DNA of 64,000 nt, from the NCBI RefSeq assembly GCF_963921235.1, contig NC_086108.1, positions 56,918,001 to 56,982,000 on the forward strand, in the 5' to 3' direction. This DNA is from Mobula hypostoma (taxonomy: Eukaryota). Below, one piece after another: positions 13,002 through 61,614 of the stretch (positions within the stretch are counted from its first letter, which is position 1; the number at the start of each line of letters is the position of its first letter). The position numbers were made by a program, and so were the translations under genes. A model generated the notes under the pieces. That model was not told the origin of the DNA, ran no database searches, and worked only from the letters and a program-made list of their open reading frames with translations.

Positions 13002-13221
13002 AACAACAGGAATTCTGCAGATGCTGGAAATTCAAGCAACATACATCAAAGTTGCTGGTGAACGCAGCAGGCCAAGCAGCATCTATAGGAAGAGGCGCAG
13101 TCGACGTTTCAGGCCGAGACCCTTCGTCAGGACGAAGGGTCTCGGCCTGAAATGTCGACTGCGCCTCTTCCTATAGATGCTGCTTGGCCTGCTGCGTTCA
13201 CCAGCAACTTTGATGTATGTT
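13002..13221. repeat. Fold-back (palindromic) Penelope-terminal-repeat element with 13-bp TSD
   Basis: Inverted arms 13038-13128 and 13131-13221 differ at one position. TSD acaatgatatcaa at 12989-13001 and 13222-13234. Confidence 0.9.
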
Positions 13222-18320: not shown

Positions 18321-19165
18321 ATATGAGGAATGTTTGATGGCTCTGGGCCTGTACTTGCTGGGATTTAGAAGGATGTGGGGGGAGGGAGTAGGATCTCATT
18401 GAAACTTTCCAAATGTTGAAAGGCCTAGTGTGCAAAGGATTTTTCCCATGGTGGAGGAGTCTAGGACAAGAGGGCACAGCTTCAGGATAAAAGGGCATCC
18501 ATTTAAGACAGAGACGCAGAGAATTTTCGTTAGCCAGAGAGTGGTGAATTTGTGGAATTTGTTACCACAGGCAGCTGTGGAGGCCATTAGGTGTATTTAA
18601 AACAGAGATTGATAGCTTCTTAATTGGCCATGGCATCAAAGGTTATGGGGTGAAAGCCTGGGAGTGGGGCTGAGGAGGGGAAAATAGAATCAGCCATGAT
18701 TGAATGGCAGAGAAAACCCAATGGGCCCAATGTCCTAATTCTGATCCCATCACCTCCACTGGAGGTAGTTGGATTGTGACCTGTGACTGTGGCTTGCTTG
18801 CCCTCTGTTAGAAAGAATCAATAGGTTTTGAGATATTAGTATCTCTACTAGGAAAATCACTAAAAAGACAAATGGTGTCCTCTTCTGGTTTGTCCTTCCA
18901 GAAGAAGCTATGACTTCTGTCTTGTTTGATCTGTTCATTGCATCTTGCTCAGGGTGGTGATGTCAATGCCAGAATGTCTGAGGTCACAGGTTACAATGGT
19001 AGAACAATGTTCATGCCTGTTGCTGCTGACACTGTCCACAGTGCTCCTGAACTCCATGTTGAGAGCACATGATGCTGGCATGATTTCCTTTAAATGGGTT
19101 GCACATCAGCTACCACATGGATCTGGTTCAAAGATGGGGGCGGGGGGGGGTGGTTCATGACCACC

Positions 19166-19978
19166 TGTTGGCCATGAAGGAATTAAAGTATGAAAGAAAA
19201 CACCAAACTCAAATAGGTCAAGGACATTGGAAGTAGACAAACCAGATGTCTTTATTCTTCCCATGTGCTTGAAGAAATGGAGGCTGCCACTTTGCGAAGC
19301 TGCTCTGTAACGTCCATTTTGTGAACTAATTCTTGCTCTGGGATAACTTAATCAGAGAAATTGAACGTGGACACAAGGAGTTTCTGTTGATGATCTGCTA
19401 AACCTCAGACCCTTCTCAGATGAAATGTTTATTGTGTACGATGGCATGCTTGCAGAAGTAATCTCATTATCTCGGCCCAGTGCCTGGGTGACCCGGTTTA
19501 ATTGGTTTCAACTGGAACCAATTAGAACTAAAGTCACCTAAGGGCATTATATTGTGCAGCCCTTGGCCATATCCAGTGGGAATCTGACACAGGTCAGTCA
19601 GATGACCTCGAACCAATGAGATTGAAACACAACATTTGAACTGATAAGGTAAGAGTGTAAGAATAAAGGGCTTCAAGTACAAAGGGGAGAGAACTCCAGA
19701 GCTAACTATCATAAGGAAGAACCCTATGCCAGGAACAGGGAGAAAAAGGATCAATCATTTAGCCAACAGGAAATCCTCGATTTCAGTGTTATAAATTAGA
19801 GAAGTTGGCAGAGTGAGTATTGGTAAGAGGGAAGAGTAGAATTCACGTTTTAAGTTGTTGTCCTGGGATCCACATAGTTACGTTGCTGTTTGCGCAGAGA
19901 CAATAAAGTGTAAACTTGGATTAATTAAGAGTTGCATAGTGAATTGACTAATCTAGATTGGTTGATGAACAATCAACA
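19166..19978 (+). repeat. 5' LTR (813 bp)
   Basis: Direct repeat of 32112-32850. TATAAA at 19790-19795 and AATAAA at 19902-19907. Confidence 0.95.
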
Positions 19979-19983
19979 GAGTT

Positions 19984-20001
19984 TGGTGTCCAGGGGTGCA
20001 C
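19984..20001 (+). promoter_or_regulatory. Primer-binding site (degenerate; tRNA-Asn-like, or tRNA-Leu-like)
   Basis: TGGTGTCCAGGGGTGCAC(TCGAA) begins 5 nt after the LTR end. Confidence 0.65.
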
Positions 20002-20149
20002 TCGAAAAGAAACAACAGAGGTCTGAGACCCTAGTTTCGAGTTGAACCACCCACTAGGTTAGGATATTGAAATGTGAAAAGGAAAGGACAAGGAGAACCC
20101 AGGGGGGGTTGGGGGTTTGGAGCGATTACTTTCATAGTAATATTTTATG

Positions 20150-21730
20150 AAAATGGCCCAATTATGACTGGATAAGAAAGGCTGAGCATGTAGGGTCAGG
20201 GACCCTGAGGGATGGATTGGGGAAAACAGTTGGTGAAAAGAAATTACAAGGAATGAAATACAGTTAGCTATTCTAATGGGATGTGTGCTGGAAGATTCAA
20301 TTGAAATGAAGAGGGAGAAACGGAAACTGGCAGAGGAACTGTGTGAGTGTAGGGAAGAGTTAGAGAGAGAAAAGAGCTGGAGAGTGAGAAAGGGAAATTA
20401 AACTCGGGGCAGGCACAGGCAAATTTGATACACGGGTCGGTTTCAGGCTCAGTGTGAACGCACAAAAGAAAGGGAGAAAAGAGGCGTGTAAAAAGGCGAG
20501 TACAAAAGAAGAAAATGGAAAACTCAGTGTCAGGATTTACGGACTGCCATGAATGTCGTACAGAAATCGGCAGCTGGGAAGAAAGGCAGCGCCGGTCACA
20601 CCAAGTGTTTAAAATAGACCAAAAAGCTGAAAAATCAACTCTCAGTTCAGAGACGAGTGATATGTGTAAGGACTGACGATAATGATGATGTCAATGGAGT
20701 GTATGAGGCGATACACCACAATAGCGAGGATTATTGGGGAAATGGCTCGCCTGCCTATGAATTTTTCCAAGAGGGCGTGGAACTTTCAACACCCACTGCC
20801 CCAATGGTGCCCTTGTTAACGGAGAGTTCAGAAGCCAGAGCCAGTCGGACTGGTTGTGACACGGTATTTCCCCCCTTTTGATGTGGCTATAGCTGCGAAT
20901 ATACCCAAGCGCGGTCTGTGAGATAAGCCTCGAGAACTTTCCCAGCAATACGCTGGAATGGATGAAGCAGAGGAACTGAAGTTAACCTTATCGTGTCTGA
21001 CTTCTGTGTTACACTCAGCTCTGCCGGAGGAGGCACAGGCACAAAACCAGGGGACCCCGGGTGATTTACGGGAAGTTATATTAGAAGCTGCAGGGACTAA
21101 TCGAGGTGACCCGGTGGAGGCTTTGCATAAGTACAGACAGTGGAAAGGGGAGCACCCCGTCTATATTTGTGATGAGGCTGTAGCCGGTTTCCTCGAGTGT
21201 TTTCTGGTCCTACCTTGGATAGGCGGAAGTTGACTCAACGACAGAGTAGCAACTGACTGAGGACCTTGGTATCGCACAGTAGAAGAGTGTGTGAAATGTT
21301 TGATCTTACAAATTCCACACGTACTGAAGCGTGGGTTCTCAGAAGGGAGAAAGGTACTAAGGAGGATAAGGGGCAATGAGGTTCTAAAATGGCTCCTATA
21401 AGAGAACATGGAGTGTAGTGTATGGTAGAATGAGAGACGCGGTGCCTATCGCGCTGTGCCGCCGTCATGCTCGACAGCGCCACCTAGTAGAAGGAGATGG
21501 TCAAGGACGCGGTCGGAATGTCTACGTTCCCCTTGTTAGGGATAAGGGATCCCCATGGAAATGCTTCAATTGCTGACACGAAGGTAATTTTACTAGGGAT
21601 TGCCCATAATCTGGACAGGTTGGGAATGGTCAGGATGTAACAAAGGTTCCATATTCGCAATGTAATGTCCAGGGTGCAGATGGAAAGAAGTGTCTGGAGT
21701 TAACTCCAGGGACTCAAAGTGCATAATGAC
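20150..21730 (+). pseudogene. gag: gag remnant (coiled coil, PTAP, capsid-like region, CCHC knuckle)
   Basis: EMKREKRKLAEELCECREELERE; PTAP at 20792-20803; capsid-like ORF 20958-21233; CFNC*HEGNFTRDC at 21562-21603. Many stops and frameshifts; start approximate. Confidence 0.75.
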
Positions 21731-23460
21731 GGTGTGAGGCCTCCTTTACGTGGGATGGTGCTGATAGACCCCTTGTAGAAGCTAGAGTAGGAGGCCCTCC
21801 TATAATTTTTTTTTTTTTTGGGATACAAGAGGCTATCGAACCATCCTAAACACATCCACATTCAATGTACCAAGTTGGCAAATACAAGATTTTATCCGGG
21901 TTTACTGGACATTCACATGCATTGGAGTTGACTACACCACTGAACATACAGTTGGGACTCCATTTGGTTGTGCTCATCGACTTACCAGCTGTTCAAAAAC
22001 ATTTTTCTGGGAAGTGTTTTTATTCAGAAAGCAGGTTTGAGTTTAAATTTGATTTGTTGTGTTATACTTGGCAGTTTACCGTTGATAGAGAGCAGGTCCC
22101 GGATGGCATTCCAGTAGGACTGTATGAGGACAGGATGTATACTTTTGGGGAGAATGTGGGTGATGGCAGAAGATATGTCAGAGGGACTCACAGGCCAGCC
22201 AAATTATTTTCGTCTGCCAGGCAATACGTGCTAAGCATAAACGTAACTGTGGCAGGATGCAAGGAGAGGTTTGTATACAAGGCCCTGATCCAAAACCCTA
22301 GAAGCAATAGCGATTTCCTAAACAAGCAGAGGCAGATTTAGAGATAATTATTCAGAGTTTGTTAACACAGGGAGTTTTGCGAGAAATAACATCTACAAAT
22401 AACTCACCCATGTGGCCACTTCAAAACTCTGATGGGAGTTGGAGACTCACTGTAGGTTACTGGGAATTGAATAAAGTTACCCCTTTAACTATCTCTACTA
22501 TAGCCACATGTCCTGGGATTATGATTAAGCAGAATACTGGATACAAGTAAAGGATCTTGGTCTGTTCCATTGAAAAGGGAGTGTCAATATAAATTTGCTT
22601 TTACCTGAGAAGGACAGCAATATATGGACAGTTTTGCCACAAGAATTTTGAACACACCCTCCATTTTCGATCAATGGTTGGCAACTGGACTGAAAGCTTT
22701 TTCAGCTCCCCAGTGTTTAATTCAATATGTTGATGATCTATTGTTATAGAAAGAGACTGGAGAGGAGCATTATGAGTTATTTAAAGAACTACTGGAACTG
22801 TTACGGGAGATGGGTTGGAAAATTAACCACAGAAAGTCTCAACTCATGAGGCAGCAGCTTATTTATCTGGGAGTGGTCATAACCCTGGGAGATGAGAGAT
22901 TGATAAATGGCATGTGGATGTAGTGGCAAAATGACTTTTCCCCACTGATGTGAGGTGATTGAGCTTATTTCTTGGTGTAGTGGGGTATTGTAGAGGCCAC
23001 AAAGTTGGCGTTGCCACCAAAGCTTATCCACTTGTAGAGCTTTTGAAGAAAGGTGTTGCATAGGAATGGAAACCAGAACACACAGGAAGTTTCAGATCTT
23101 AAAACTAATCTTGCAGAAGTACTTGCTCTTAAGATCCCAAACCTCTTGGAGGTCTCTGCTACCAGTAACATGATATCAGCTGTGTTACTCCAGGAGACAC
23201 TTGGTCAACCGGAACTAGTGGCATATGCATCTTGAATGCTTCCTCCAGTTGAACAAGGATATTCAACAAGTGGGTGTCATCTGTTAGCAGTGTTTTGAGC
23301 AGTTAAATATTTCACATGTTGTGGGCTTTAATTCACTAACCATTTTAACAGAGCATATTCCAATTCAGCTTTTACTGGATAGTTGTATCAAGGGTAAAAC
23401 AGACAGCCAAACTTGATTAGTCCGATGGACATTGCAATTTCAGGGTCGTAATGTCACAAG
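21730..23460 (+). pseudogene. pol: pol remnant: protease, RT and tether-like RNase H
   Basis: WDTRG protease site at 21819-21833; NSPMWPLQNSDGSWRLTV; LPQ; LIQYVDDLLL (YVDD at 22726-22737); LEVSATSNMISAVLLQE...VAYAS. Confidence 0.9.
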
Positions 23461-24390
23461 TTAAAAGATTTCATTTACATATTGTATTTCAGCCGCCTTC
23501 TTGCTATAAATGTACCCTCGATAAGCTGCGCTGTGTTCCTCGCCACAATTGCAGCATTTCAGCCTAGCTCCCGCTTCACATTTCCCATATTCATGTTCTG
23601 CAACGTATCTCCCACATCTTTGTTTTCCTCTGCAGACCGCCACAATGTGCCCGAATTTCTGACATTTATAGCATCTTAAAGGTGGTGGTATATATATTCT
23701 AACCGCATAACACATATACGCAAAGTAAACGTTAATTGGCAATCTCTCTTCGTCAAAGTTAATCATTATCGATAAACTATCACACTTTTTCTGGTTTCTT
23801 GTAACTTTCAAACATTTGGCCTCAATAATTTTTGCTCCTTTTATGTTTTGTTTAATCTCATCCATAGTAACTTTTGTTGGTATCCCTGAAATAACTCCTC
23901 TCCTCCACTTTCTATTGTTGGGTATTGAGCATTTTACTTCTTTGCCGTCTATTTTACATAATCTTATCACTTTGCCTTGCTGTGCACTATCCTGACAAAT
24001 CACTAATAGCGATCCATTTCGTAAAATCTTTGCTCCTTTAATCTCCCCTATAATTTTGTTGAGCATCTTTGTCAAATGAATCGGGTTCCACTCACCAAAA
24101 GACACCCCGTCTTCACTTAGTTTTATAATTGCTTTAATCTCATCTTCTTTCCATTCTTTTGCTGTCCTGTTTTGATCATCCGCTGACTCCTCAGAGTTTG
24201 ATATCCCGTACCTCTGCTTTCTTTTCTTCCTCTTTCCATTCCGTTCCTCTTCCCGCCGAGCTCCATCTCTAGTTCACTTCCACTCTTGCCAAAAACTTCC
24301 TTCAACAGCTTGGCTCTTTCCTTGATGTTCTCTCTCTCCGCCATTTTCCAGTCACAACTCGACTCCTCTCGATCCACTATCCCCCCAGCC
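23461..24390 (-). mobile_element. I-group (Nimb/I-like) LINE 5' end with ORF1, nested in ERV pol
   Basis: ORF 23461-24105 has YIPPPLRCYKCQKFGHIVAVCRGKQRCG...HEYGKC...CCNCGEEH, a triple zinc knuckle typical of I/Jockey-group ORF1. ORF2 is absent. Confidence 0.8.
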
Positions 24391-24559
24391 AGACCTAATG
24401 GTTTCCCAATCCAGCAGCCAGAGGCTGAATCCTGAAGCTATTTATGAAGTCAGCCCAAAAGAGAATCAGCTGCCTCAACAGAAACTGGGGAAAACCGGAA
24501 AACCTGGAATAAGGAGCATGGACCGGACTGTGAACTGGAATGCAGACTTCACGGACCGG

Positions 24560-24774
24560 ATCATGACAAATATGGAGTGGAAGAAACAGCAGAGTAAAGC
24601 TTATTTTGACATATGGACAAAACCTAACAAGTTGGAAATGGGACAGAAGGTTATGATCACGTTACATCAGCTGGGCCATGTTACATCTCTGAGATTTGTA
24701 TGAGGTCAATGACAGAGCAGCCGGTCTATCAAATCCAGACTGCTCCAAGTAAGTTAGGTTGGTATCATATCAAT
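24560..24774 (+). pseudogene. Integrase C-terminal (GPY/F-type) remnant; the motif continues at 29045-29080 after the CR1 insertion
   Basis: KKQQSKAYFD...LEMGQKVM...PVYQIQ...GWYHIN, then N*LS at 29045 (reconstructed WYHINQL). Confidence 0.7.
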
Positions 24775-27700
24775 GTCCTCTTGTAGCTGAGGTTCTTAAG
24801 GCACATTGGCAATGAAATGCTCTGGGCAGAGATGAAGAAACTTTTAGAATTATGTTTCTGGCAATTGACGATAATGAGGATGAAGGAGTAGTTTCCCCTC
24901 TCAGTGAGTTGGGCAACCACTTCCAGTTTGCACCCGGAGGCTAAGGATAGTTCACGTCATACTCAACATCAAGAAGGGAGGGTTAAGGCAAGGCAGTCTT
25001 TGCAAACCTCAAAGCCAAGGCAGAGACAATGAAAGAGAGAAACTGATGGGATACTGCAGATGTTCTAGAAATAAAGGAGGGGGATAGAAGAGTTGAATTT
25101 AGAGGAGGCATCAGAAGAGGCACAGCATTTGGGAAGGGAAGGGAGAGCAGCCAGATGTCTTGGTATATATTGGTACCAATGACATAGGAAGGAAGAGCAA
25201 AGAGGTCCCAAAGAGAGAATTTAGAGAGCCAGGCAGAAAGCTGAGGAGCAGGACCTCCAAGGTAGAAATTCCTGGATTGCTACTTGTGTCACCTACCAGT
25301 TAGGGTAGAAACAGGATGATTTGGCAGATAAATGCGTGGCTGAGAAGCTGATGTTGGGGGCAGGGCTTTAGGTTCCTGGATGGATCATTGGGCTATCTTC
25401 TAGGGATGGGTTGCTTCTGAACCTGAGGAGAACCAATCTTCTCACGAGCAGGTTTGTTAGAGTTGTTGGGGAGGGTTAAAGCTAATTTGGTAGGGGAATG
25501 GGAACTGAAGTGAAGGGATTCAGGGTAGGACGGATGGTAAAAAAGCAAAGATAGTGTGCAGTCAGACTGTCAGGAAGGGCAGGTATATGACAGGACAGAA
25601 TTGCAGCCAGCAGGGTGAGTATCAGTGCATTAGGTTTGCAGAATCAAAAAGGGTAGCAAATACAGTACTGGAAGTGTTATATCTCAATGCATGGTGTAAG
25701 AAATAAGGTGGATGATCTTGTAGCACTTTAACAGATTGTCAGGTATGATGTTGTGGCCATCACTGAATCATGGATGAAGGATGGTTGTAGTTGGGAGCTG
25801 AATGTCCAAGGTTGCACATTGTATCAGAGGGGTAGGAAGGTACGTGGAGGCTGTGGCGTGGCTCTGCTGCTAAAGAATGGCATCAAATCATTACAAAGAT
25901 GTGACAAAGGATCGGAAAATGTTGAATCCTTGTGGGTTGAGTTAAGAAACTGCAAAGGTAAAAGGCCCCTGATAGTAGTTATATACAGGCCTCCAAATAC
26001 GTTTGTAGTAGCTGGGATGTGGACTGCAGATTACAGTGGGAAATAGAAAAGGTGTGTCAAAAGGGCAATGTTATCATAGTCATAGGAGATTTAACAGAGG
26101 TAGATTTGGAAAATCAGGTTGGTAACGGATCCCAAGAGGGTGAATTTGTTGAATGCCTGCAAGATGACTTTTTAGAGCAGTTTATTGTAGAGCTTACAGG
26201 GGGATCAGCTAGAGTGGATTGAGTGCTACGTAATGAACTGGAGTTGATTAGGGAGTTTAAGGTAAAGGAACCCTTAGGAGACAGTGATCACAGTATTATT
26301 GAGTTCAACTTGAAATTTGATAGGGAGAAAGTAAATTCTGACATAGCAGTATTTTAGTGGAGTAAAGGAAATTATAGTGGTATGAGAGAGGGGCTGGTCA
26401 AAGTAACTTGGAAGGAGTTGCTGGCAGGGATGACAGCAGAGCAGCAATGGCTTGAGTTTCTGGGAAATATGAGGAAGGTGCAGGATAGATGTACATGTAT
26501 TCCAAAAACAAAAAAATTAACTCAGATGGCAAAATATTACAACCTTGGCTGACAAGGGAAGTCAAAGCTAATGTAAAAGCAAAAGAGAGAGCATACAGCA
26601 AAGCAAAAGAAGAAGATAGAGAATTGGGAAGCTTTTAAACCCTACAGAGAGTAACTAAATTAATCATTAGGAGGGAAAAGATGAAAAATGAAAGCAAGCT
26701 AGCAAACAATATCAAGGTGGATAGAAAAAGCTTTTTACAAGTATATAAAAAATAAAAGAGAGATGAGAATGGAAATAGGACCACTAGAAATTGAGGCTGG
26801 AGAAATAATAACAGGGGACAAGGAGACAGCAGGTGAACTAAGTGAGTATTTTGCATCAGTCTTCCCTGTGGAGGACACTAGCAGTGTGCCAGTTGTTGAA
26901 GGATGTGAATGAACAGAAGTGAGTGCAGTTAGTATTACAAGGGAGGAGGTGCACAAAAAGCTGAAAGTCCTAAAGGTACATAAGAAGTTGTCCTGTCCAA
27001 GACCGGAAGAAGCTGCAGAAGATCGTGAACACGGCGCAGCACATCACACAAACCAATCTTCCGTCTGTGGACTCACTTTACACCGCACACTGTCGGAGCA
27101 GTGCTGCCAGGATAATCAAGGACATAACCCACCCAGCCAACACACTTTTCGTCCCTCTTCCCTCCGGGAGAAGGTTCAGGAGCTTGAAGACTCGTACGGC
27201 CAGATTTGGGAACAGCTTCTTTCCAACTGTGGTAAGACTGCTGAACAGATCCGGACCCAGATCTCGGCCATACCCTCCAAATATCCGGACCTGCCTCTCC
27301 ATTTTTTTTGCACTACCTTACTTCCCATTTGTTCTATTTTCTATTTATGATTTATAATTTAAATTTTTAATATTTACTAATTTTAACTTTTTAATATTTA
27401 ATATTTGTAATCCAGGGAGTGGGAAGCGCAGAATCAATTATCGCTGTGATGATTGTACGTTCTAGTACCAATTGTTTGGCGACAATAAAGTATAAAGAAT
27501 GTCACCTGGACAAGATGAACTGCACCCTAGGGTTCTGAAAGAGGTAGTGGTAGAAATTGCGAGGGCATGAGCTATGATCTTTCGAGAATCATTGGACTCT
27601 GACATGGTTTCAGAGGACTGGCAAGTTGCAAATGTCACTCCACTCTTTAAGAAAGGAGGGAATCTGCAGAAAAGAAACTGTAGACCAGTTAGCCTGACCT

Positions 27701-29044
27701 CAGTGGTTGGGAAGAAGTTGGAGTCAATTGTTAAGAATGAGTTTATGGAGTACTTGGTGACACAGGACAAGGTAGGACAAAGTCAGCTTGGTTTCCTTAA
27801 AGGAAAATCTTGCCTGACAAATCTGTTGGAATTCTTTGAGGAGATTATAAGTAGGATAGATAATGGGGATGTCGTTGATGTTGTATATTTAGATTTTTAG
27901 AAGGCGTTAGACAAGTTGCCACACATGAGGCTACTTACCAAATTAAGAGTCCATGGCATTACAGGAAAGTTACTAGTGTGGTTAGAGCATTGGTTGATTG
28001 GTAGGACGCAGTGAGTGGGGAAAAAAAAGGATCCTTTTCTGGTTGGCTACCAGTGGCTAGTGGTGTTCTGCAGGGGTTGGTGTTGGGACTGCTTTTTATG
28101 CTGTATATCAAGGATCTACATGATGGAATAGATGGCCAACTTGTTGCCAAGTTTACAGATGATATGAAGATTGGTGGAGGGGCAGGTAGTGTTGAGGAAA
28201 CAGGAAGGCTGCAGAAGGACTTAAACAGATTAGGAGAATGGGTGAGAAAGTGGCAAATGAAATACAGTGTTGGAAAATGCATGGTCATGCTCTTTGGTAG
28301 AAGAAATAAATGTGTAGACTATTTACTAAACGTGAGAAAATCCAAAAACCTAGGATGCAAAGCGACTTGGGAGTCCTTGTGCAGAACACCCTAAAAGTTA
28401 ACCTGCAGGTTGAGTCAGTGGTGAGGAAGGCAAATGCCATGTTAGCATTCATTTCAAGAGGTCTGGAATATAAGAGCAGCGATGAGATGCTGAGGCTTTA
28501 TAAGGCACTGGTGAGGCCTCACCTTGAGTATTGTGAACAGTTTTGGGCTCCTTATCTAAGAAAAGATGTGCTGGCATTGGAGAGGGTTCAGAGGAGGTTC
28601 ACAAGGATGATTCTGGGAATGAAAGGGTTATCATGCAAGGAACATGTGACAGCTCTGAGTCTGTACTCACTGGAATTTAGAAGGATGTGGGAGGGGGGAG
28701 AAATCTCATTGAAACTTTTTGAATGTTGAAAGGCCTAGACAAAGTAAATAGGAATGTTTCCCAGGGCGGGGGGGTGTCTATTTAAAACATGCAGAGAGAT
28801 TTTTTAGCCAGTAGGTGGACGATTTGTGGAGTTTGTTACCACAGGCAGCTGTGGAGGCCAGGTCGTTGGGTGTATTTAAAGCGGAGATTGATAGGTTCTT
28901 GAATGGCCACTGCATCAAAGGTTGTGGGCAGAGGGCCAGGGAGTGGGGCTGTGGAGGGAAAAAGGGATCAGTCACGATTAATTGGCGGAGCAGACTCAAT
29001 GGGCCAAATAGCCTTATGTCCAAATATCCTATGTCTTAAGGTCT
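24775..29044 (+). mobile_element. CR1 LINE (ORF1 SGNH esterase part and ORF2), decayed, inserted at the end of ERV integrase
   Basis: PDVLVYIGTNDIGRK (ORF1); AITESWMKDG, RPVSLTSVVGK, KFTDDMK and LYKALVRPHLEYC (ORF2); possible AAT duplication at both ends. 5' boundary approximate. Confidence 0.88.
26985..27497 (+). mobile_element. Young Rex1-type LINE 3' fragment nested in CR1
   Basis: NTAQHITQTNLPSVDSLY...LPSGRRFRSLKTRTARFGNSFFP; nearly identical to 36236-36845. Confidence 0.85.
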
Positions 29045-29089
29045 AATTAGTTAAGTACAGAAACTGCCCTTGATGTTTAGTGTTCGGAA

Positions 29090-31760
29090 ATGATTCGTAT
29101 TGGAATACTACCGATTGGTGGCCTCATAATGGTTGCAGGCTGTACTGAAGGATATATGTTCTACAATGGAGTGTATTATTGGCTACTTGTACATTCATCT
29201 GAACAGATGTTAGGTATGAAGATTAGGTTGGCAACAGACAGAATATTCACAACATTCATGGAGAGGTCTATTTGGATTATTTCAGATACCATGGTAATAG
29301 TAGTCTGTGTGGGTGAGGAAGGCGAAAAGGAAGTATGAATTTATGAAGAACTAAGAAGAGATTTTGTAAGGAAAAGGAGACCAATGTTTATTGGTCATTC
29401 TGTTTGAGTAACGGTAATATGGGGAAAAGATGGAACTACTAGGATAACAGTGGGAAGTCATGTTTTTTGGGCCCTGCTTCAGAAAAAAAGGGGTAATAAC
29501 TCAGCACTACTTCTTTGTGAATGTAATGGTACTGTTGACATGGACACAAATCAGAAACGAGATTATCGGTTAGCATGTTTCCCAGGCAACTCAATCCCTG
29601 TCACTCTGGAGCCCCAAAATCTTCCGTAAACACCTCACCCCATGTTGGAGCTGTCAACTGTTACTATTCTTATGTGATGAGGCTCAGACAGGTACAAAGG
29701 GAGTAGGACTTGTATTAGAAGAAACGGAAGAATGAATTATTCTAGTACCGGGATGTAGACAAGTGTAAGTGTTGTTTAACTTGACATCACTCCAAATCCC
29801 TAGCTGGTGTGACATAAGCCTCCAGCAGCTTTTCTGACATTTATTAATTGAACAGTTTACCCATTCTGAATTTAAAACATGAGAGAGGTGAAGAAGAGGG
29901 CTTATTAAACTTACAGGAGTGGGATACACAGCTGGAGTTTCCATGGTAAGTACACCAGATATTGCAGAGTTAAACTCTCAGTTCGATTCTCTAAGGCAAA
30001 AGATGAAAGAAATTGTAAATTGAGATTTTCAGGATATGGGAGGAGTTAGCACTTTGGGAAAGGAACAAGTGAATGTATTTTCGGAAATGCTCCATATCTT
30101 ACAACCCTTGGGAAATGTGACAAATCAAATTATTGACAGAGTTAATAATGAAACCACTGCACTAAGGATGCTGTGTGCATAACCCGTATCTCTTGGCTAC
30201 TTTCTGTAATTGGAATTAACATGGTACAATTAGTGAACCACAGGGTTACTGATTGGATTTCAGATGAACAGCTAAAGGAATAGATTGTTACTAACACCCC
30301 AGGGTGACACATTAGGAAGTTCACCTTGACTAATCACCTCCTTGGAAATTGTAGGATTGGGTTTGGAGCACTAAATGTTGGAGATGTTCTTCATATTCCT
30401 TACTATAGTGATGACTGAACATACCAGCTATACAAGGTTCATAATGTTGGGAAATATTAAGAAGCAGTTTGTATTTCACTTACTTAATCCACCTACTTAT
30501 GCCATTAAATAGCAAGGATGTTCAAAGGGAGCATATTTGGCTTTCTGTCATCACAAAGTAGAATACTGGGTTTGTCCAGAGGATTTAATAAAGAATGGGT
30601 TAACAGATTATGTTTTTTTTCTTACGATAACTGTTCTCCATCTATTTTGCCTGTCAATAACAGGACATTCTTGAAATATGATTTGGTGAATGATACTTAT
30701 TACATTGCTACTTCAAGCACACTTTACAAGAAGAGATCTTTAATTTGCAGTTTAATTAACTCTAATGATGCAGTTTCTAATTTTTTGAGGGGCTTACTTT
30801 TAGCTTGGCAAGTATTATCCCATCCAGTTGTAAAACCACCTATTCAACTGAATGTAATGGGCTCCTTAAGGTTGTTATAGTCAGGGGTGGTAAAGGGGAC
30901 AAGCTCCCACTACCTGTTAAATGCTCCCAATGGCGTGCACGTCAAATAGCTTCTGACAACCAAGTCCAGCTCCTGGCCTTCTCGTGTAGCTTAATTTCTA
31001 AGCCCAATGGAATCATTTCTGCTGATAGAAGGGGCAAAGGCGGGTTACTGGCACCTTAAAACCAGTTGCTTTGGGCAGATGGGGCTCGTCAGCCATCTAG
31101 GAGAAGGAAAAAACTGATCTCAAACCTCCACTACCTTGTGGCTGTACCCACTCGTGGGGAAGGCTTCAGGAGTAAGCCCCGAGGGGAAAAATCCAGAGCT
31201 GGAGTTTCAAAGGCAAACCTACATTGAATTCAATGCTGACTGGCAACTCCTGCGACACTGCTGGTACCAAACTGTAACGTTCCTTTTGGTTCATCAGGTG
31301 CATGGAGAGGGAGCTTGCTACATGGGCAACAGCCTGCTCTCCATATTGTACTGTCCAGGCTTGTATATCTAGACTGCCAGGACACAACATCCATAGTCAA
31401 CTCGGACTGAGGTAGGCCTCTGATATATCAATGATACTGTTAAGGGCTCACTTAGATATGTACCTACTGCTCTTCCACCCGTCCCTTATTTTAGTTATTA
31501 ACCAAAATTAAGCTATTAGACAATGAGTTGAATTATCCAAGGCTGTTAGAGATCATGTGGATTTAGCTGATGATGTTTTGCAGAATCCACCCTTTTGGAG
31601 TAAAGTTTGGAACCGAGGTCTGAATGTTAATGTACATCCTTGGATTCATGTTATTTCACTTTATTTTTGTTCTGCTCTTTGTTCTAATGATTATCCAGTG
31701 TATTTTTCCGTGGCTTTCGATGGCTACTTAAACACCTGGAGTATTTATGTGCTAAAGTAC
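29090..31760 (+). pseudogene. env: env remnant: signal peptide, beta-rich domain, and class I fusion (F-like) glycoprotein
   Basis: MIRIGILPIGGLIMVAG leader; (R)ER(R)RR|GLIKLTGVGYTAGVSMVSTPDIAELNSQFDSLRQKMKEIVN at 29880-30020; Cys-rich LAFCHHKVEYWVCP; WSKVWNRGLNVNVHPWIHVIS followed by FIFVLLFVLMIIQCIF near 31600-31710. Confidence 0.8.
30871..31436. mobile_element. Non-autonomous retroelement-like insertion interrupting env
   Basis: Composition shift, with env-like sequence resuming after it. Possible diverged TSD (tgtaatgggctccttaag / tgttaagggctcacttag). Confidence 0.55.
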
Positions 31761-32091
31761 CATTCCAAATCTCTTCATAGTAAGTTTTGTCTGACTTTAT
31801 ACCATCATGTTGTCTTTGAGTATTTTGTACCTTGACCTCATTATATTTTAATTGTTATTATATGCCTTGATAAATGGTTCAAAATTAGGTATATTTTATC
31901 ATGTTTCTTTTATATGCTTTTGCACTGATAATATTTTTAAACGTGCCACTGTTTTGATATTACTTTTTATCTATGTTTTATAGTCTATGACATTTTGTTG
32001 GTATCTTTATCAGTATTATTTGATGTAGTCATAAATGCTGGTGTTCCTTTCGTACTATATTCGCTCAGACATATATACAGTAGTGTGATCC

Positions 32092-32110
32092 AAAGGGGGT
32101 GGGGGGGGAA
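32092..32110 (+). promoter_or_regulatory. Polypurine tract
   Basis: aaagggggtggggggggaa lies 1 nt upstream of the 3' LTR. Confidence 0.85.
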
Positions 32111-32111
32111 C

Positions 32112-32850
32112 TGTTGGCCATAAAGGAATTAAACTATAAAAGAAAACATCAAACTTGAATAGGTCAAAGACAATGGAAGTGGATAAACCAGACATTTTTA
32201 TTCTTGCCATGTGCTTGAAGAAATGGAGGCTGCCATTTTGCGAAGCTGCTCTGTAACTTCCATTTTGTGAACTAATTCTTGCTCTGGGATAACTTAATCA
32301 GAGCAATTGAACGTGGACACAAGGAGTTTCTGCTGATGATCTGCTAAACCTCAAACCCTTCTCAGATGAACTGTTTATTGTGTACGATGGCATGATTGCA
32401 AAAGTCACCTAAGGCATGAAGTTGTGTAGCCCTTGGCAACATCCAATGGGAATCTGACACAGGTCATTCACATGACCTCAAGCCAATGAGATTGAAACAC
32501 AGCATTTAAACTGATAAGGAGAGTGTATAAGAATGATGGGCTTCAAATGCAAAGGGACAAGAACTCCAGAGACTAACTATCATAAGGAAGAACCCCATGC
32601 CAGGAACAGGGAGAAAGACAATCGATTGTTTGGCCAATGGGAGATCCTCTATTTCGGTGTTATAAATTGGAGAAGTTGTCTAAGTGAGTATTGATAGAGA
32701 GGGAACAGTAGAATTCATGTTTTATGTTGTTGTCCTGGGGTCAACAAAGCTACATTGTCACTTGTGAAGTGACAATACAGTGCAAACTTCGATTAATTAA
32801 GAGTTGAGTCATGAAATGCTTAACCTAGATCAGTTGATGAATAGTCAACA
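32112..32850 (+). repeat. 3' LTR (739 bp)
   Basis: Direct repeat of the 5' LTR lacking about 75 bp; followed by the CACC TSD. Confidence 0.95.
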
Positions 32851-32999
32851 CACCAGAGACCGAGTTTTGCTGCAAGGACAGGCACATCCCACTAATGCCT
32901 ACTCAGACTCTAAATATGTAGAGCTACCCTCTGATCACACAGAGACAATTATACCATTACACAGAGACTTTCACACTTGTACCCGTCCCTTCCTCCTCC

Positions 33000-53613: not shown

Positions 53614-56016
53614 TTTAGATTGTTTCAGAAAGGACAGGGAAGGAGATAAAAGAGGTGGGGGCGTGGCACTGTTGATCAGAGAGTGTCACAGCTGCAGAAA
53701 AGGAGGAAGTCACGGAGGGGTTGTCTACGGAGTCTCTGTGGGTTGAAGTTAGGAATAGGAAGGGGTCAATAACTCTACTGGGTGTTTCTTATAGACCACG
53801 CAATAGTAACAGGGACATCGAGGAGCAGGTAGGGAGACAGATTCTGGAAAGGAGTAATAATAACAGGGTTGGTGTGGTGGGAGATTTTAATTTCCCAAAT
53901 ATTGATTGGCATCTCCCTAGAGTGAGGGGTTTAGATGGGCTGGAGTTTGGTAGGTGTGTTCTGGAAGGTTTCTTGACACAGTAGGTAGATAAGCCTACAA
54001 GAGGAGAGGCTGTACTTGATCTGGTATTGGGAAATGAACCTGGTCAGGTGTCAGGTCTCTCAGTGGGAGAGCATTTTAGAGACAGTGATCACAATTCTAT
54101 CTCCTTTACCGTAGCATTGGAGAGGAATAGGATCAGACAAGTTAGCGAAACATTTAATTGGAGTAAAGGGAAATATGAGGCTATCAGGCAGGAACTTGGA
54201 AGCATAAATTGGAAACAGATGTTCTCAGGGAACTGTACAGAAGAAATGTGGCAAATGTTCAGGGGATATTTGTGTGGAGTTCTGCATAGATACGTTCCAA
54301 TGAGACAGGGAAAGGATGGGAGGATACAGAAACTGTGGTGTAGAAAGGCTGTTGTAAATCTAGTCAAGAAGGAAACAAGAGCTTACGAAAGGTTCAACAA
54401 ACTAGGTAATGATAGAGATCTAGAAGATTATAAGGTTAGCAGAAAGGAGCTTAAGAACGAAATTAGGAGAGCCAGAAGGGGCCATGAGAAGGCCTTGGCA
54501 GACAGGATTAAGGAAAACCCCAAGGCATTCTACAAGTATGTGAAGAGCAAGAGGATAAGACATGAGAGAATAGGACCAATCAAGTGTGACAGTGGAAAAG
54601 TGTGTGTGGAACCAGAGGAGATGGCAGAGGTACTTAATGAATATTTTGCTTCAGTATTCACTACAAAAAAGGATCTTAGCGATTGTAGGGATGACTTGCA
54701 GCGGACTGAAAAGCTTGAGCATATAGATATTAAGGAAGAGGATGTGCTGGAGCTTTTGGAAAGCATCAAGTGGGATAAGTCACCGGGACCAGATGGGATG
54801 TAACCCAGGCTACCGTGGGAAGGGAGGAAGGAGAGGGCTGAGCCTCTGGCGATGATCTTTGCATCATCAATGAGGACGGGAAAGGTTCCGGAGGATTGGA
54901 GGGTTGCGGATGTTGTTCCCTTAATCAAGAAAGGGAGTAGGGATAGCCCAGGAAATTGTAGACCAGTGAGTCTTACTTCTATGGTTGGTAAGTTGATGGA
55001 GAAGATCCTGAGAGGCAGGATTTATGAACACTTGGAGAGCCATAATATGATTAGGAATAGTCAGCATGGCTTTGTCAAAGGCAGGTTGTGCCTTACGAGC
55101 CTGATTGAATTTTTTTGAAGATGTGACTAAACACATTGATGAGGGTAGAGCTGTAGATGTAGTGTATATGGACTTTAGCAAGGCATTTGATAAGGTACCC
55201 CATGCAAGGCTTATTGAGAAAGTAAGGAGGCATGGGATCCAAGGGGACATTGTTTTGTGGATCCAGAATTGGCTTGCCCACAGAAGGCAAAGAGTGGTTG
55301 TAGACGGGTCATATTCTGCATGGAGGCCGGTGACCAGTGGTGTGCCTCAGGGATCTGTTCTGGGACCCCTACTCTTTGTAATTCTTATAAATGACCTGAG
55401 TGAAGAAGTGGAGGGATGGGTTAGTAAATTTGCTGATGACACAAAAGTTGGGGTTTTTTTGGATAGTGTGGAGGGCTGTCCGAGATTACAGCTGGACATT
55501 GAGAGGATGCAAAAGTGGGCTGAGAAGTGGCAGATGGAGTTCAACCTAGATAAGTGTGAGGTGGTTCATCTTGGTAGGTCAAATATGATGGCAGAATATA
55601 GCATTAATGGCAAGACTCTTGGCAGTGTGGAGGATCAGAGGGATCTTGGGGTCCAAGTCCATAGGACACTCAAAGCTGCTACGCAGGTTGACTCTGTGAA
55701 TAAGTAGGCATATGGTGCATTAGCCTTCATCAACCACGGGATTGAGTTTAAGAGCCGACAGGTAATGTTGCAGCTTTATGGGACCCTGTTCAGACCCCAC
55801 TTGGAGTACTTTGCTCATTTCTGCTTGCCTCACTACAGGGAAGACATGGAAACCATAGAAAGGGTGCAGAGGAGACTTACAAGGATGTTGCCCGGATTGT
55901 GGAGCATGCCTTATGAGAATAGGTTGAGTGAACTCACGTTTTCTCCTTGGAGTGACGGAGGATGAGAGGTGACCTGATAGAGGTGTACAAGATAATGAGA
56001 GGCATTGATCATGTGG
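53614..56016 (+). mobile_element. CR1 LINE ORF2, copy 1 (3' end cut at the rearrangement junction)
   Basis: ORFs 53721-55965 contain VGDFNFP, SDHNSI, KSPGPDG, YMDFSKAFDKVPH, GVPQGSVLGP and KFADDTK. Confidence 0.92.
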
Positions 56017-56893
56017 AATTCAAGGGAAGTATTCTGTAATCAGCAGCGTCTGCATTTCTTTAACATCCCCTAAGCGTAAGAAAACAATTGTGCAGCCACA
56101 GCAGCAATCCCCTAGTGTGGAGAGCTGAACAAAAATGTGGTCAGGTTTTGTTCTGAGATGGAGAGAGATGAAAATATGCAGTGCTTTTGATTGAATTGTT
56201 AGGGCTTGAAACTACGGCTCTGGATTTGTAGAATGCAGATGTGTGAGGGTGGAGAGGAGGTCATTACAATCAGAAAGCCTCTCTGATCTTTAAGAAGTAT
56301 TTAGATGAGCACTTGGACTGCTACAGTGAAGAAGGCTACTGGCCAAGTATTGGCAAATGGAGTTAATAGTGGGCTCTTAGGCCTATTTCTCTGCTGTATG
56401 ACTCTGACCCTATGGTATGCTCCTCAGATCCCTTTAACAAATCCAACACATCATAGACCACAGGAGGTGTAAAACCAGTTCTTCCCACTCTCTCAGGTGC
56501 CAAACTTTCTTTCAGTTTAGCTCAGTGTATTTGCTGCTTAAGATGTGGTCTTTTCCACACAGGGGAGGCCAAGTGTAGATTCATTGATTCCTGGACAGAA
56601 AGCTTATCTGAATCAGAATCAGATTTAATACCCCTGGTTTATATCATGAAATTGGTTGTTTTGTGGCAGCAGTACATTGCAAAGCATAATAGTAAAAAAA
56701 ACTATACATTACAATAAGAAATGTATATAAAAATAAACTAAATACGCAGTACAAAAAGAGACGAAAAAAAAGAGAAAATGTAGTGAGGTAGTGTACATTC
56801 ATTCAGAAACCTGATAGCACAGGGGAAGAAGCTGTTCCCACAACACAGAGTGTGTGGCAGCAATGAGAAGGGGGTATGTCCAAGGAGATGAGG
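56016..56893 (-). repeat. Inverted copy of about 59310-60209
   Basis: For example, gaattcaagggaagtattctgtaatcagcagc (56016) matches the reverse complement of 60180-60209. Colinear along the whole arm. Confidence 0.92.
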
Positions 56894-58949
56894 TACGTTC
56901 CAATGAGACAGGGACAGGATGGAAGGGTACAGGAACCGTGGTGTAGAAAGGCTGTTATAAATCTAGTCAAAAAGAAAAGAAGAGCTTATGAAAGGTTCAA
57001 AGAACCAGGTAATGATAGAGATCTAGAAGATTATAAGGCTTGCAGAAAGGACCTTAAGAATGAAATTAAGAGAGCCAGAAGGGGCCATGAGAAGGCCTTG
57101 GCAGACAGGATTAAGGAAAACCCCAAGGCATTCTACAAGTATGTGAAGAGCAAAAGGATAAGACGTGAGAGAATAGGACCAATCAAGTGTGACAGTGGAA
57201 AAGTGTGTGTGGAACCGGAGGAGATGGCAGAGGTACTTAATGAATATTTTGCTTCAGTATTCACTACGGAAAAGGATCTTGGCAATCGTAGGGATGACTT
57301 GCAGTGGACTGAAAAGCTTGAGCATGTAGATATTAAGGAAGGGGATGTGCTGGAGCTTTTGGAAAGCATCAAGTGGGGTAAGTCATCGGGACCGGACGGG
57401 ATGTACCCCAGGATACTGTCGGAAGGGAGGGAGGAGATTACTGAGCCTCTGGCGATGATCTTTGCATCATCAATGAGGATGGGAGAGGTTCCAGAGGATT
57501 GGAGGGTTGTGGATGTTGTTCCCTTATTCAAGAAAGGGAGTAGGGATAGCCCAGGAAATTATAGACCAGTGAGTCTTACTTCAGTGATTGGTAAGTTGAC
57601 GGAGAAGATCCTGAGAGGCAGGAATTATGAACATTTGGAGAGCCATAATATGATTAGGAATAGTCAGCATGGCTTTGTCAGAGGCAGGTCGTGCCTTATG
57701 AGCCTGATTGAATTTTTTGAGGATGTGACCAAACATATTGATGAGGGTAGAGACGTAGATGTAGTGTATATGGACTTTAGCAGGGCATTTTATAAGGTAC
57801 CCCATGCAAGGCTTATTGAGAAAGTAAGGAGGCATGGGATCCAAGGGAATATTGCTTTGTGGATCCAGAACTGGCTTGCCCACAGAAGGCAAAGAGTGGT
57901 TGTAGATGGGTCATATTCTGCATGGAGGCTGGTGACCAGTGGTGTGCCTCAGGGATCTGTTCTGGGACCCCTACTCTTTGTAATTTTTATAAATGACCTG
58001 GATGAAGAAGTGGAGGGATGGGTTAGTAAATTTGCTGATGACACAAAAGTTGGGGTTTTTTTGGATAGTGTGGAGGGCTGTCTGAGATTACACTGGGACA
58101 TTGATAGGATGCAAAAGTGGGCTGAGAAGTGGCAGATGGAGTTCAACCCAGATATGTGTGAGGTGGTTCATCTTGGTAGGTCAAATATGATGGCAGAATA
58201 TAGCATTAATGGCAAGACTCTTGGCAGTGTGGAGGATCAGAGGGATCTTGAGGTCCAAGTCCATAGGACACTTAAAGCTGCTGCGCAGGTTGACTCTGTG
58301 GTTAAGAAGGCATAGAGTACATTGGCCTTCGTCAACCATGGGATTGAGTTTAAGAGCTGAGAGGTAATGTTGCGGCTATATAGGTCCCTGGTCAGACCCC
58401 ACTTGGAGTACTTTGCTCAGTTCTGGTCGCCTCACTACAGGAAAAATGTGGAAAGCATAGAAAGGGTACAGAGGGGATTTACAAGGATGTTGCCTGGATT
58501 GGGGAACATGCCTTATCAGAATAGGTTGAGTGAACACAACCTTTTCTCCTTGGAGCGAAGGAGGATGAGAGGTGACCTGATAGAGGTGTACAAGATAATG
58601 AGAGGCATTGATCATGTGAATAATCAGAGGCTTTTTCCCAGGGCTGAAATGGCTAGCATGAGAGGGCATAGTTTTAAGGTGCTTGAAAGTAGGTGCAGAG
58701 GAGGTGTCAGGGGTAAGTTTTTTATGCAGAGAGTGGTGAGTGCTTGGAATAGGCTGCCGGCGACGGTGGTGGAGGCGGAAACGATAGGGTCTTTAAAGAG
58801 ACTCCTGGATAAATACATGGAGCTTAGAAAAATAGAGGACTATGGAGAAGCCTAGGTAGTTCTAAGGTAAGGACATGTTCGGCATAGCTTTGTGGGCCAT
58901 AGGGCCTGTATTGTGCTGTAGATTTTCTGTGTTTCTATGTTTCTATTCT
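56891..58949 (+). mobile_element. CR1 LINE ORF2, copy 2 (local duplicate of 54290-56016, with intact 3' tail)
   Basis: 479-aa RT ORF 56876-58315 and ORF 58367-58855; (tttcta) tail. Confidence 0.93.
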
Positions 58950-59600
58950 AAACATACACCAGTCCTCACTGAGGGATCAGCAATGGAACAGATGAGCAGT
59001 TTCAAGTTCCAGGGTGTCAACATCTCTGTAGATCTATCCTGCGCCCAACATATTGATGCAATTACAAAGAAGGCACAACAGTGACTATATTTCATGAAGA
59101 GTTTGAAGAGACTTGTGTGTCACTAAAGACTATCTCAAATTTCTACAGACGCACCATGGAGAGCATTCTAACTGGTTGCTCTGGAGGATCAGAAAAAGCT
59201 GCAGAGAGTCGCAGACTCAGCCAGTTCCATCATGGGCACCAGCCTCCCCAGCATTGAGGACATCTTCAAAAGGCAGTGTCTCCAACGGGTGGTATCTATC
59301 ATTAATGATCCTCATCGCCCCATCCTTGGACATATCCTCTTCTCATTGCTGCCACACACTCTGTGTTGTGGGAACAGCTTCTTCCCCTGTGCTATCAGGT
59401 TTCTGAATGAATGTACACTACCTCACTACATTTTCCCTTTTTTTTGTCTCTTTTTGTACTGCGTATTTAATTTACTTTTATATACATTTCTTATTGTAAT
59501 GTATAGTTTTTTATTATTATGCATTGCAATGTACTGCTGCCACAAAACAACCAATTTCATGATATAAACCAGGGGTATTAAACCTGATTCTGATTCAGAT
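58950..59600 (+). mobile_element. Rex1-type LINE, 3' part
   Basis: FKFQGVNISVDLSCAQHIDAITKKAQQ; tail ctgattctgattc. Confidence 0.8.
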
Positions 59601-61614
59601 AAGCTTTCTGTCCAGGAGTCAACGGATCTACACCTGGCCTCCCCTGTGTGGAAAAGACCACATCTTAAGCAGCAAATACACTGAGCTAAACTGAAAGAAT
59701 GTTTGGCACCTGAGAGAGTGGGAAGAACTAGTTTTACACCTCCTGTGGTCTAAGATGTGTTCGATTTGTTAAAGGGATCTGAGGAGCATACCATAGGGTC
59801 AGAGTCATACAGCAGAGAAAAAGGCCCAAGAGCCCACCATGACGATGACCCTTCTATACTAACTCCATTTGCCAGTACTTGGCTAGTAGCCTTCTTCACT
59901 GTAGCAGTCCAAGTGCTCATCTGAATACTTCTTAAAGATCAGAGAGGCTTTCTGATTGTAATGACCTCCTTTCCACCCTCGCACATCTGCATTCTAAAAA
60001 TCCACAGCCGAAGTTTCAAGCCCTAACAATTCAATCAAAAGCACTGCATATTTTCATCTCTCTCCATCTCAGAACAAAACCTGACCACTTTTTTGTTCAG
60101 CTCTCCACACTAGTGGATTGCTGCTGTGGCTGCCCAATTGTTTTCTTACGCTTAGGGGATGTTAAAGAAATGTAGACGCTGCTGATTACAGAACACTTCC
60201 CTCAAATTCAAGAAACACCAGCAAAAGTGCTGGTAAATCAAGCCCAGCCCAAAAATTGCAGGGAAAAACACAAAATGAAAGATGAATTGAAAGGATTTTA
60301 GGAAGTGAGCCACATGTAGAGATGAGGCAACAGCCATACTCTGGAAGTAATAATTTAATGCAGCTGTTGTAACGTAATTGCAATAAAGGGCTTTATTACA
60401 GCCAGGGACAATACAATATGTTGCTGATAATCTTGGTTCAGTAAGGAAAGGCAGTGTGGCTGAAGATAAAAAAGTTCTTTAGTGGTTTTTTTGGTTGCCC
60501 CACCCTGACCCTGCTGAAAGGAAACCTAACTCATTGTCCCTGCTCCTTCCTGCACCCACTGCACAATCTACTCTCAATTCATTTTGTAGTTTCACAGAAC
60601 ACACTGAGATTTGGCACCACCCAAATCTGCCTCCATACGTCTGACATTTTGTAAGTCATGTGCTAATTATCTATGATCTCAGCCTTCCTTTGCCAGTAGC
60701 TGGCTTGAGTTTGTATATTTTAAAAAAATTGCAGTATTAACAATTGGTCCTTTTTAAGATTATTCTAGAGCCATTAGTTCATGCTTTCTGATGAAATAGG
60801 TTATAGTTAATTTCTCTGAAAGCAATCCCTAACTACAGAGAGGTATAAAAAAACAAGGAAGGCAGTACAGCAGGTTAATTTTTGAATACTGAGCATTCTC
60901 AGCCTAGGTTTCCAAGAATAACATAGCATCTGAACATGGTACCACACCCTAATATACATTAGTGTCATTAAAATGAATAGGGACTAAAAATCTTAAAAAT
61001 GTGATATTTACATCTTGCATCGCTCAGTGGTTTAACAGGGGAAGGCTGCTTGGAATTTTTTGAGGCACATTACTGTCAGTCACAGCCAACTGGATGGTGT
61101 GCATAAGGCAGAAACAATAGAAATGATAGAATGCAGGCTTAGGCCATGGGGAATTCAGCCAGGATTCCGATCAAAAAGAATGTGAGGGATGCCATATAAA
61201 TTCAAAGTTCTTACATAGCACTGAGTATTGCATTCAAATTATTTTGGCTCATAGAAATTCACATTTTAGAACCATGTTACTTTTGCTAAAGATAAAATAA
61301 TTTATCAGATCTATTTCTGCCAAATTCATAGGTTCTGCAGCTTGTTCTATCATGGTACTGACTTTGCAATATTTGCAACATAGTACAGGTCAACCTTCAC
61401 TAATCTGGCACCACTGGGGCCTGAGGAGTGCCGGATTAGTGAAAATGCCAGATTACAGAAGGATCACATTAAGCAATAGCTAACCATCTCATCATATTTT
61501 TAAAATATCATGTAAGTCAGTACAAGTTAGATAATAATAAAACAGAAATATTAAATGAGTAGCAAGTGAAATTTTAATAAGGTAATATATTGTACAGGCA
61601 TAGATGAAATAAAG

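Follow-up and report, generated by a model that had tools for sequence, protein, structure and literature searches.

What kind of retrovirus left the broken provirus at positions 19166-32850 (plus strand) of a 64,000-nucleotide stretch of the genome of the ray Mobula hypostoma (contig NC_086108.1; the whole stretch is called the window below), and has the host put any of its kin to use? An earlier note, made from the letters of the DNA, had placed the element in or near the lokiretroviruses (Loki) and had read it as an extension of their host range to cartilaginous fishes. The window copy is dead, an ordinary decayed member of its retrovirus lineage. It probably derives from a deep-branching retrovirus outside Loki whose envelope protein (Env) is predicted to be of the fusion (F) type, and a sister copy on contig C2 has likely given rise to a captured env gene, which may act as a fusogen at the cell surface.

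The env gene kept on contig C2

The genome assembly (G000) comprises 3.48 Gb in 200 contigs. A search with the long terminal repeat (LTR) of the window element gave 2668 first-look candidates, 40 of which were scored, and the other full-length LTRs were 75-80% identical; searches with the reverse transcriptase (RT) and env regions gave 89 candidates each, of which 40 were likewise scored. One env, at the C2 locus, was intact, and every other copy examined was decayed. This env is a frame of 741 stop-free codons (G000:C2:126459289-126461514). It is the best env match outside the window, with 84% nucleotide identity compared with 79% for the next three long copies. Of 77 matches, obtained by scoring 61 of 1161 candidates, no other is both full-length and free of stops. 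The provirus around it is decayed: its LTRs are identical at 481 of 609 positions (Kimura two-parameter (K2P) distance 0.25), its leader/gag region carries inserts and its RT is mostly deleted.

Across 33,254 aligned bases, 26 sister env copies, counted with the more distant L061 left out, together carry 209 stops and 274 frameshifting indels, and every copy has at least one or the other. At that density the C2 env should contain about 32 such breaks, and none is seen (Poisson, 1e-14). Divergence on the C2 branch is 0.039 at 0-fold and 0.156 at 4-fold degenerate sites, a ratio of 0.25 (bootstrap 0.18-0.36), and in the decayed copies it is 0.125 and 0.139, a ratio of 0.90. These values are three-point distances under an assumed star tree, with site classes taken from the C2 frame and 60 bootstraps on 60 of 325 pairs. 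That the frame survived by chance, or was inserted only recently, instead of being a host gene is very improbable. The case for a host gene is drawn from sequence: the missing breaks, a 4-fold branch as long as that of the decayed copies, LTRs that have diverged by 21% and an intact frame in two further species.

The two further species are the stingrays Hypanus sabinus (LOC132401028, XP_059838750) and Hemitrygon akajei (XP_072911529). Their proteins have 745 residues each and align to C2 Env free of gaps, at 680/734 (92.6%) and 683/734 (93.1%) identical positions, respectively. In the stingray gene models the first exon encodes 9 residues, and its counterpart at C2 is found in the host flank: it lies at C2:126449848, some 1.6 kb upstream of the 5' LTR of that provirus, with a splice acceptor on one side and a donor on the other; a further acceptor lies directly before the C2 env. 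The 9-residue exon forms part of an old repeat dispersed through the genome (742 candidates, identity about 73%). In public runs of two other organisms, C and D, there are contigs that cross from the end of the 3' LTR into the same C2 flank. In run X4, contigs differ at 21/864 positions (2.4%) inside the env frame and at 125/2581 (4.8%) outside it; in run X8 the figures are 27/837 (3.2%) and 147/1926 (7.6%), after exclusion of two contigs lying across the ends of the frame and of two that are probably paralogues. Nine of the 15 variants listed in the C2 frame are silent. Taken together, these data make it highly probable that host selection has kept the C2 env, which is likely a captured F-type envelope gene of live-bearing rays. 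A 319-residue partial env model in H. sabinus (P0138, LOC132400333), on a contig equal in length to the one that carries the full gene, is 95% identical to that gene and may be a local duplicate.

Two contigs of run X2, taken by guess to be RNA, bear on transcription. One starts at the predicted acceptor with 64 letters that map to another place. The other begins within env and stops 24 nt short of the AATAAA in the 3' LTR. They fit a spliced mRNA without proving it. Run X1 gave short low-depth contigs only, one of them upstream of the acceptor. A look-up of the env stretch gave no RNA record that contains it, which says nothing about whether it is expressed. In the scheme that we propose, a promoter in the flank would drive the transcript, and the repeat-derived flank exon would supply the start codon and splice to the acceptor just before env. 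The protein would then be cleaved at its RRRR site, form a membrane-anchored F-type trimer and fuse cells.

Cell fusion is the job that we place first, at slightly less than an even chance, ahead of receptor blocking and other roles. It is favored because the fusion machinery changes less than the N-terminal part: in one of two species compared there are 28/259 changes in the N-terminal part and 21/455 in the fusion machinery (p 0.003), and in the second species 24/259 and 24/455 (p 0.04). The better-kept part comprises the fusion peptide, heptads, core and transmembrane segment. An antiviral restriction factor acting by receptor interference, or another role without fusion, would be a clearly less likely use of the gene. 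In mammals it is established that env genes retained by the host can block receptors, and stingrays are not known to have a true placenta. Many related subfamilies in a less decayed state are also present in the genome (Pol 63-67% identical to P0001, Env 40-47% identical to C2 Env), which indicates that related viruses kept invading. Against such a role, the best-conserved parts are the furin site, the fusion-peptide region, the heptads and the transmembrane segment, none of which a blocker would presumably need.

Stingrays bear live young that are fed by uterine secretions. Viviparity is reported for H. akajei itself (PMC7193589). It makes a reproductive role for the putative fusogen worth considering, and is in itself not evidence for one.

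Envelope fold and polymerase placement

Features of C2 Env include a hydrophobic stretch near the N-terminus, RRRR at residue 279, a transmembrane segment near the C-terminus, 8 N-glycan sequons and 15 cysteines. A protein-library search with it returned 36 relatives; of the 13 that were looked up, 12 could be assigned to six shark genera, one sawfish and two frogs. One relative, P0169, matches the Pfam family Fusion_gly (E 4.7e-6) and resembles by eye the published Loki-Bsp Env; C2 Env is 23% identical to this Loki-type protein over 292 residues. When an AlphaFold2 model of Env was compared with the PDB by Foldseek, all 44 listed rows were F proteins of paramyxoviruses and pneumoviruses (best E 1.3e-11), and VIA-align superposed the Env core on F with Z 11.1 and a root-mean-square deviation (rmsd) of 7.4 over 316 residues. 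Env is thus predicted to be of the F type, with a fold like those of the fusion proteins of respiratory syncytial virus and measles virus. The F-like Env of the earlier note is supported at this level; its use as a sign of Loki is not. Predicted epsilonretrovirus and feline foamy virus Envs were also matched in BFVD, and the fold is not diagnostic of Loki because foamy virus Env has it too (PMC11468914). Matches in the ESM Atlas were all below 0.9 and serve as leads only.

Three long relatives, P0145 from Chiloscyllium punctatum (739 residues), P0143 from Mustelus asterias (673) and P0147 from Pelodytes ibericus (723), are 24-28% identical to Env and may represent young proviruses or independent captures. 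P0149, a TRP-channel gene model of Pristis pectinata (XP_051879492), contains a 71-residue piece 60% identical to Env, implying that the family also exists in sawfish. A long foamy-like leader continuous with Env was considered and found no support, since 11 of 14 copies have a common stop just upstream.

The RT gives a different picture of kinship from the one proposed earlier. Its closest intact relatives are proteins at 54-62% identity, followed by coelacanth and frog 'NYNRIN-like' Pols at 45-48%. The relatives of the ray family carry the retroviral motif LPQGF, in contrast to CPFGY in the Loki-type rows of our alignments; the published Loki-Lch Pol reads CPFGYLNSPA in RT (PMC7947760). The Loki-type rows are eight teleost-type or other rows with CPFGYANSPAE and one eel row, chosen by a motif match to Loki-Lch made by eye. 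Two trees were inferred, one from 79 rows under LG+G4 and one by a quick search from 60 rows under C20, 19 rows having been dropped as redundant, long or short. In both, the ray copies form one group, with support of 96-97 in the SH-like approximate likelihood-ratio test (SH-aLRT), and stand, together with Pols from coelacanth, frog and Xenopus, on the side of the canonical retroviruses (split 99 and 96), apart from the Loki-type and Ty3/Gypsy rows. Approximately unbiased (AU) tests on 38 rows reject a grouping of the copies with Loki (p 4e-6), of the whole lineage with Loki (p 0.007) and of the copies with Ty3/Gypsy (p 3e-4). Membership in Ty3/Gypsy was dismissed on this last result and on the dual RNase H (tether plus second RNase H) seen at the family level, which is common to all retroviruses. 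Epsilon- or gamma-like class I membership was dismissed as well, because the class I-like rows, labeled by source names and Pfam domains, form a group of their own separate from the ray lineage (SH-aLRT 99).

We therefore hold with considerable confidence that the family, judged by its RT, is not a lokiretrovirus, and it is likely a deep-branching retrovirus lineage outside that group. With this placement both the earlier assignment to Loki and the proposed extension of the Loki host range fall. That the family is nevertheless a true lokiretrovirus or its direct sister, carrying Loki into cartilaginous fishes, is improbable. Its dual RNase H plan, an Env detectably related to the Loki type, a loose grouping of its second RNase H with the Loki rows, and the NYNRIN-like database name of its relatives, considered beside the CGIN1-like integrase of Loki, would all agree with such a position. 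The RT motif, trees and AU tests speak against it, and the integrase tree leaves the relation undecided. A search of the genome with a Loki-type Pol, made under a stricter first look by which absence is not shown, found 40 matches at only 28-40% identity; three of the six loci inspected gave the RT motif, in each case LPQGF. In their survey, Wang and Han found Loki in none of six chondrichthyan genomes and left Pyxicephalus unstarred (PMC7947760). Relatives of the ray family occur in Scyliorhinus torazame and C. punctatum, two of those six, and in Pyxicephalus, and the presence of Env relatives in Loki-negative chondrichthyan genomes fits a separate lineage. General Pfam scans of five heavily decayed sister loci gave no match to smc, the accessory gene of some Loki members.

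A different possibility, falling a little short of probable, is that the family equals the named shark and frog group of foamy-like endogenous retroviruses (FLERVs; CmiFLERV/XtrFLERV) or another clade III lineage. It is compatible with the explanation preferred here and changes the name only, leaving Env and its capture as the novel part. The clade of ghost shark and Xenopus is known from pol only, and a newt FLERV has a primer-binding site for tRNA-Asn (PMC5512871). Our RT trees join the ray lineage to a Xenopus tropicalis Pol, and RT matches of chondrichthyan endogenous retroviruses are mostly clade III (2843/4861; PMC11089739). In the PDB, the RT fragment of the window scores best with foamy virus RT, but a full-length close relative scores higher with RT-RNase H of the murine leukemia virus type (230 bits) than with foamy RT (195). 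The family also gives no Pfam match to foamy Env or foamy protease, and it possesses a CCHC knuckle.

Several points weigh against the overall interpretation of a non-Loki lineage with an F-type Env and a captured gene. The RT trees, quick searches on 237 columns, contain no foamy virus, snakehead retrovirus, ERV-L or published Loki sequences; the window's own RT rows fill less than half of these columns, and the Loki-type label derives from a by-eye motif match to a published supplement. The tree of the second RNase H places the lineage loosely with the Loki rows (SH-aLRT 89), and the integrase tree, built from relatives only with no CGIN1 row, is an unresolved polytomy. Direct Pfam and PDB sequence searches with Env returned no F protein, and the best PDB match of the Env profile has E 0.044. 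The Env model is weak (mean pLDDT 57, pTM 0.41, residues 1-206 unmodeled), and its TM-scores to F proteins in Foldseek are 0.2-0.3. At the C2 locus, the contig comparison covers the longest listed contigs only, with paralogues also in the input, and expression is judged from the X2 contigs, whose RNA nature is guessed, and from RefSeq gene predictions.

Anatomy and age of the window provirus

The window element was compared with 12 sister loci, and its own features lie on the plus strand. A 5' LTR of 813 nt (19166-19978; TGTTG..CAACA, with a TATA-like element at 19790 and AATAAA at 19902) and a 3' LTR of 739 nt (32112-32850), which has a 75-nt gap relative to the first, are identical at 644 of 737 aligned columns (87%; K2P 0.14). 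They are flanked by the target-site duplication CACC, read at 19162-19165 and 32851-32854. The primer-binding site (19984-20001) is of the tRNA-Asn type, matching the 3' end of the genomic tRNA at 13 of 18 positions, and the sister copy L025 matches at 17 of 18. The sister-copy pattern of this site has 27 exact matches in the genome compared with 0 for a control, and tRNA-Asn genes lie at five of six such loci inspected. A polypurine tract (32092-32110) immediately precedes the 3' LTR. In all of these elements the reading of the earlier note was upheld, and its cartilaginous-fish host is borne out too, since the env locus is shared with stingrays.

Decayed gag, with approximate limits, spans 20160-21630 by DNA homology to sister copies and by reading frames, and ends with a degenerate CCHC knuckle (21562-21603). 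The knuckle, which the earlier note had set against a foamy virus, has lost its His in the window; the full form CX2CX4HX4C is present in three of ten sister loci scanned (L024, L025 and L026), in agreement with the view that the family is not a classical foamy virus. A protease region is placed at about 21760-22200 by position, frames and sister comparison, and in the window copy the remnant has no recognizable catalytic motif and no Pfam match. The decayed RT (22203-23076) matches RVT_1 (E 3e-11) and retains YVDD at 22726-22737, as claimed. Ty3-type RNase H models (RT_RNaseH) match in the same frame, and the domain at 23077-23471, labeled RNase H before, is the tether, a degenerate Ty3-type RNase H whose catalytic acidic positions (within 23077-23458) look lost by eye. 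The window copy has lost its second RNase H and integrase core, at the site of the insert that follows. Both are present in sister copies: L034 has the second RNase H (PF00075, E 5e-11), L028 the H2C2 zinc finger of integrase (E 3e-7), and Pfam matches to the integrase core occur in sisters as well.

Homology to the sisters stops at 23471, resumes at 24569, extends to about 25115, resumes at 29044 and is interrupted at 30857-31422. The first gap (23472-24568) is filled by a fragment of a non-LTR retrotransposon on the minus strand, presumably I/Nimb-like, with a 270-codon frame that contains a zinc knuckle. The C-terminus of integrase, identified earlier, and the pol-env spacer follow at 24569-25115 by sister comparison. 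In this spacer (24790-25115 in the window; L067 1871-2264), a short acidic stretch is alike in several copies, and one frame has few shared stops, so that a small accessory frame is possible. The second insert (25116-29043) is a long interspersed nuclear element (LINE) on the plus strand, which we take to be CR1/L2-like, with a further insert at about 26984-27500. Decayed env forms two parts: 29044-30856, with signal, furin-like site, fusion peptide, heptad and F-like core, and 31423-31790, whose end is approximate, with the C-terminal heptad and transmembrane segment. Between them lies the third insertion (30857-31422), identified by sister comparison. Segment by segment, the env remnants share 58-81% identity with C2 Env, and, like gag, they were correctly recognized. 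All three nested insertions named by the earlier note are present, but the second begins at about 25116 and not at 24775, some 340 nt later; no clear target-site duplications were seen around them.

Elasmobranch substitution rates are slower than mammalian ones, and the LTR ages are therefore likely minimums. At the mammalian rate of 2.2e-9 used by Wang and Han (PMC7947760), the LTR pairs give 32 million years for the window and 57 million years for C2. The virus, primed by tRNA-Asn and entering cells by means of a furin-cleaved F-like trimer, would have proliferated in the germ line of the ray some tens of millions of years before the present.

Matches to the less decayed subfamilies include G000:C21:139536812-139537750, and one of their env matches runs for 311 residues without a stop, short of full length. 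Three near-identical env matches (C116 twice and C186) were considered as young intact proviruses and rejected as segmental duplicates of one decayed fragment; this env and LTR fragment (L060-L065) lies within a 99% identical segmental duplication, and similar triplicates exist at C9:200.38-200.43 Mb. An immunoglobulin V-set exon (Pfam E 8e-18), presumably light-chain-like, is found at most 5 kb from a family copy (L032 8824-9270; G000:C2:154.50 Mb). Elsewhere in the window, at 54288-60209, 2.6 kb of LINE-like sequence is directly duplicated (93-95%), and sequence of this kind also forms a large inverted repeat with arms at about 56016-56886 and 59323-60209 (93-98%). Near-perfect hairpins of head-to-head repeat copies lie at 13038-13221 (91-nt arms, 99%) and 61622-61956 (nested arms, 84-89%).

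Comparison with known systems

The family is of interest for a likely captured stingray env and as a basal lineage in which a retroviral RT goes together with an Env related to the Loki type. With Loki it shares gag-pol-env between LTRs, the tether and second RNase H, and an Env with signal peptide, RXXR site, fusion peptide, coiled coil and transmembrane segment that is related to the F proteins of Mononegavirales (PMC7947760). It differs from Loki in an RT with LPQGF on the canonical-retrovirus side, in the short protease-RT spacer of its relatives, in a Gag that ends in a CCHC knuckle, and in an Env of about 745 residues with an extra N-terminal part of about 190, compared with about 570 residues in Loki. 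A basal retroviral RT with YVDD and an Env folded like F (Z 8.1 and rmsd 5.4 over 256 residues against foamy Env 8rm0) are likenesses to foamy viruses and FLERVs, as is the tRNA-Asn primer-binding site, found in NviFLERV-1 (PMC5512871). Differences are the CCHC knuckle, which spumavirus Gag lacks (PMC8278194), a shorter Env and, in the Pfam searches, no match to a foamy protease or Env. The 'NYNRIN-like' Pols of coelacanth, frog and shark are 45-48% identical to it in RT, and a description of these relatives as one lineage was not met in the literature examined. A paper on NYNRIN (PMC9447858) offered no clue to its origin.

The combination of a canonical RT with a Loki-related Env bears on the four scenarios of env origin of Wang and Han (PMC7947760). 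Together with the structure of foamy Env, it favors either a common ancestor that already had an F-type envelope or an exchange of env from one lineage to another. A wider proposal, which we regard as speculative and rather unlikely to hold in all its parts, would be that live-bearing stingrays domesticated an F-type Env as a syncytin-like fusogen, the first captured env of cartilaginous fishes, that its source was a widespread undescribed basal lineage of sharks, rays, coelacanth and frogs with canonical RT and Loki-related Env, and that the F fold is the ancestral retroviral envelope.

The env captures known so far come mainly from mammals, a lizard and teleosts, and most are of the gamma type. 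Literature searches found no paper on a ray env gene; a 2020 co-option survey by Wang and Han lay outside their scope and may list it. A word search of PMC12813294 gave no mention of sharks or cartilaginous fish. The C2 locus resembles syncytins, the teleost captures including percomORF, and the foamy-derived genes of geckos: one env has stayed intact while the provirus around it decayed, it shows purifying selection, and it has orthologues across species. A gecko study reportedly describes co-opted foamy viruses, and an F-type capture may have a precedent there. The C2 env differs from these captured genes in its predicted F type, as opposed to the gamma type, in its cartilaginous-fish host, and in a start codon that comes from an exonised repeat outside the provirus. 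Its conserved, predicted F-type product in stingrays offers a concrete gene in which uterine nourishment, cell fusion and antiviral defense can be tested.

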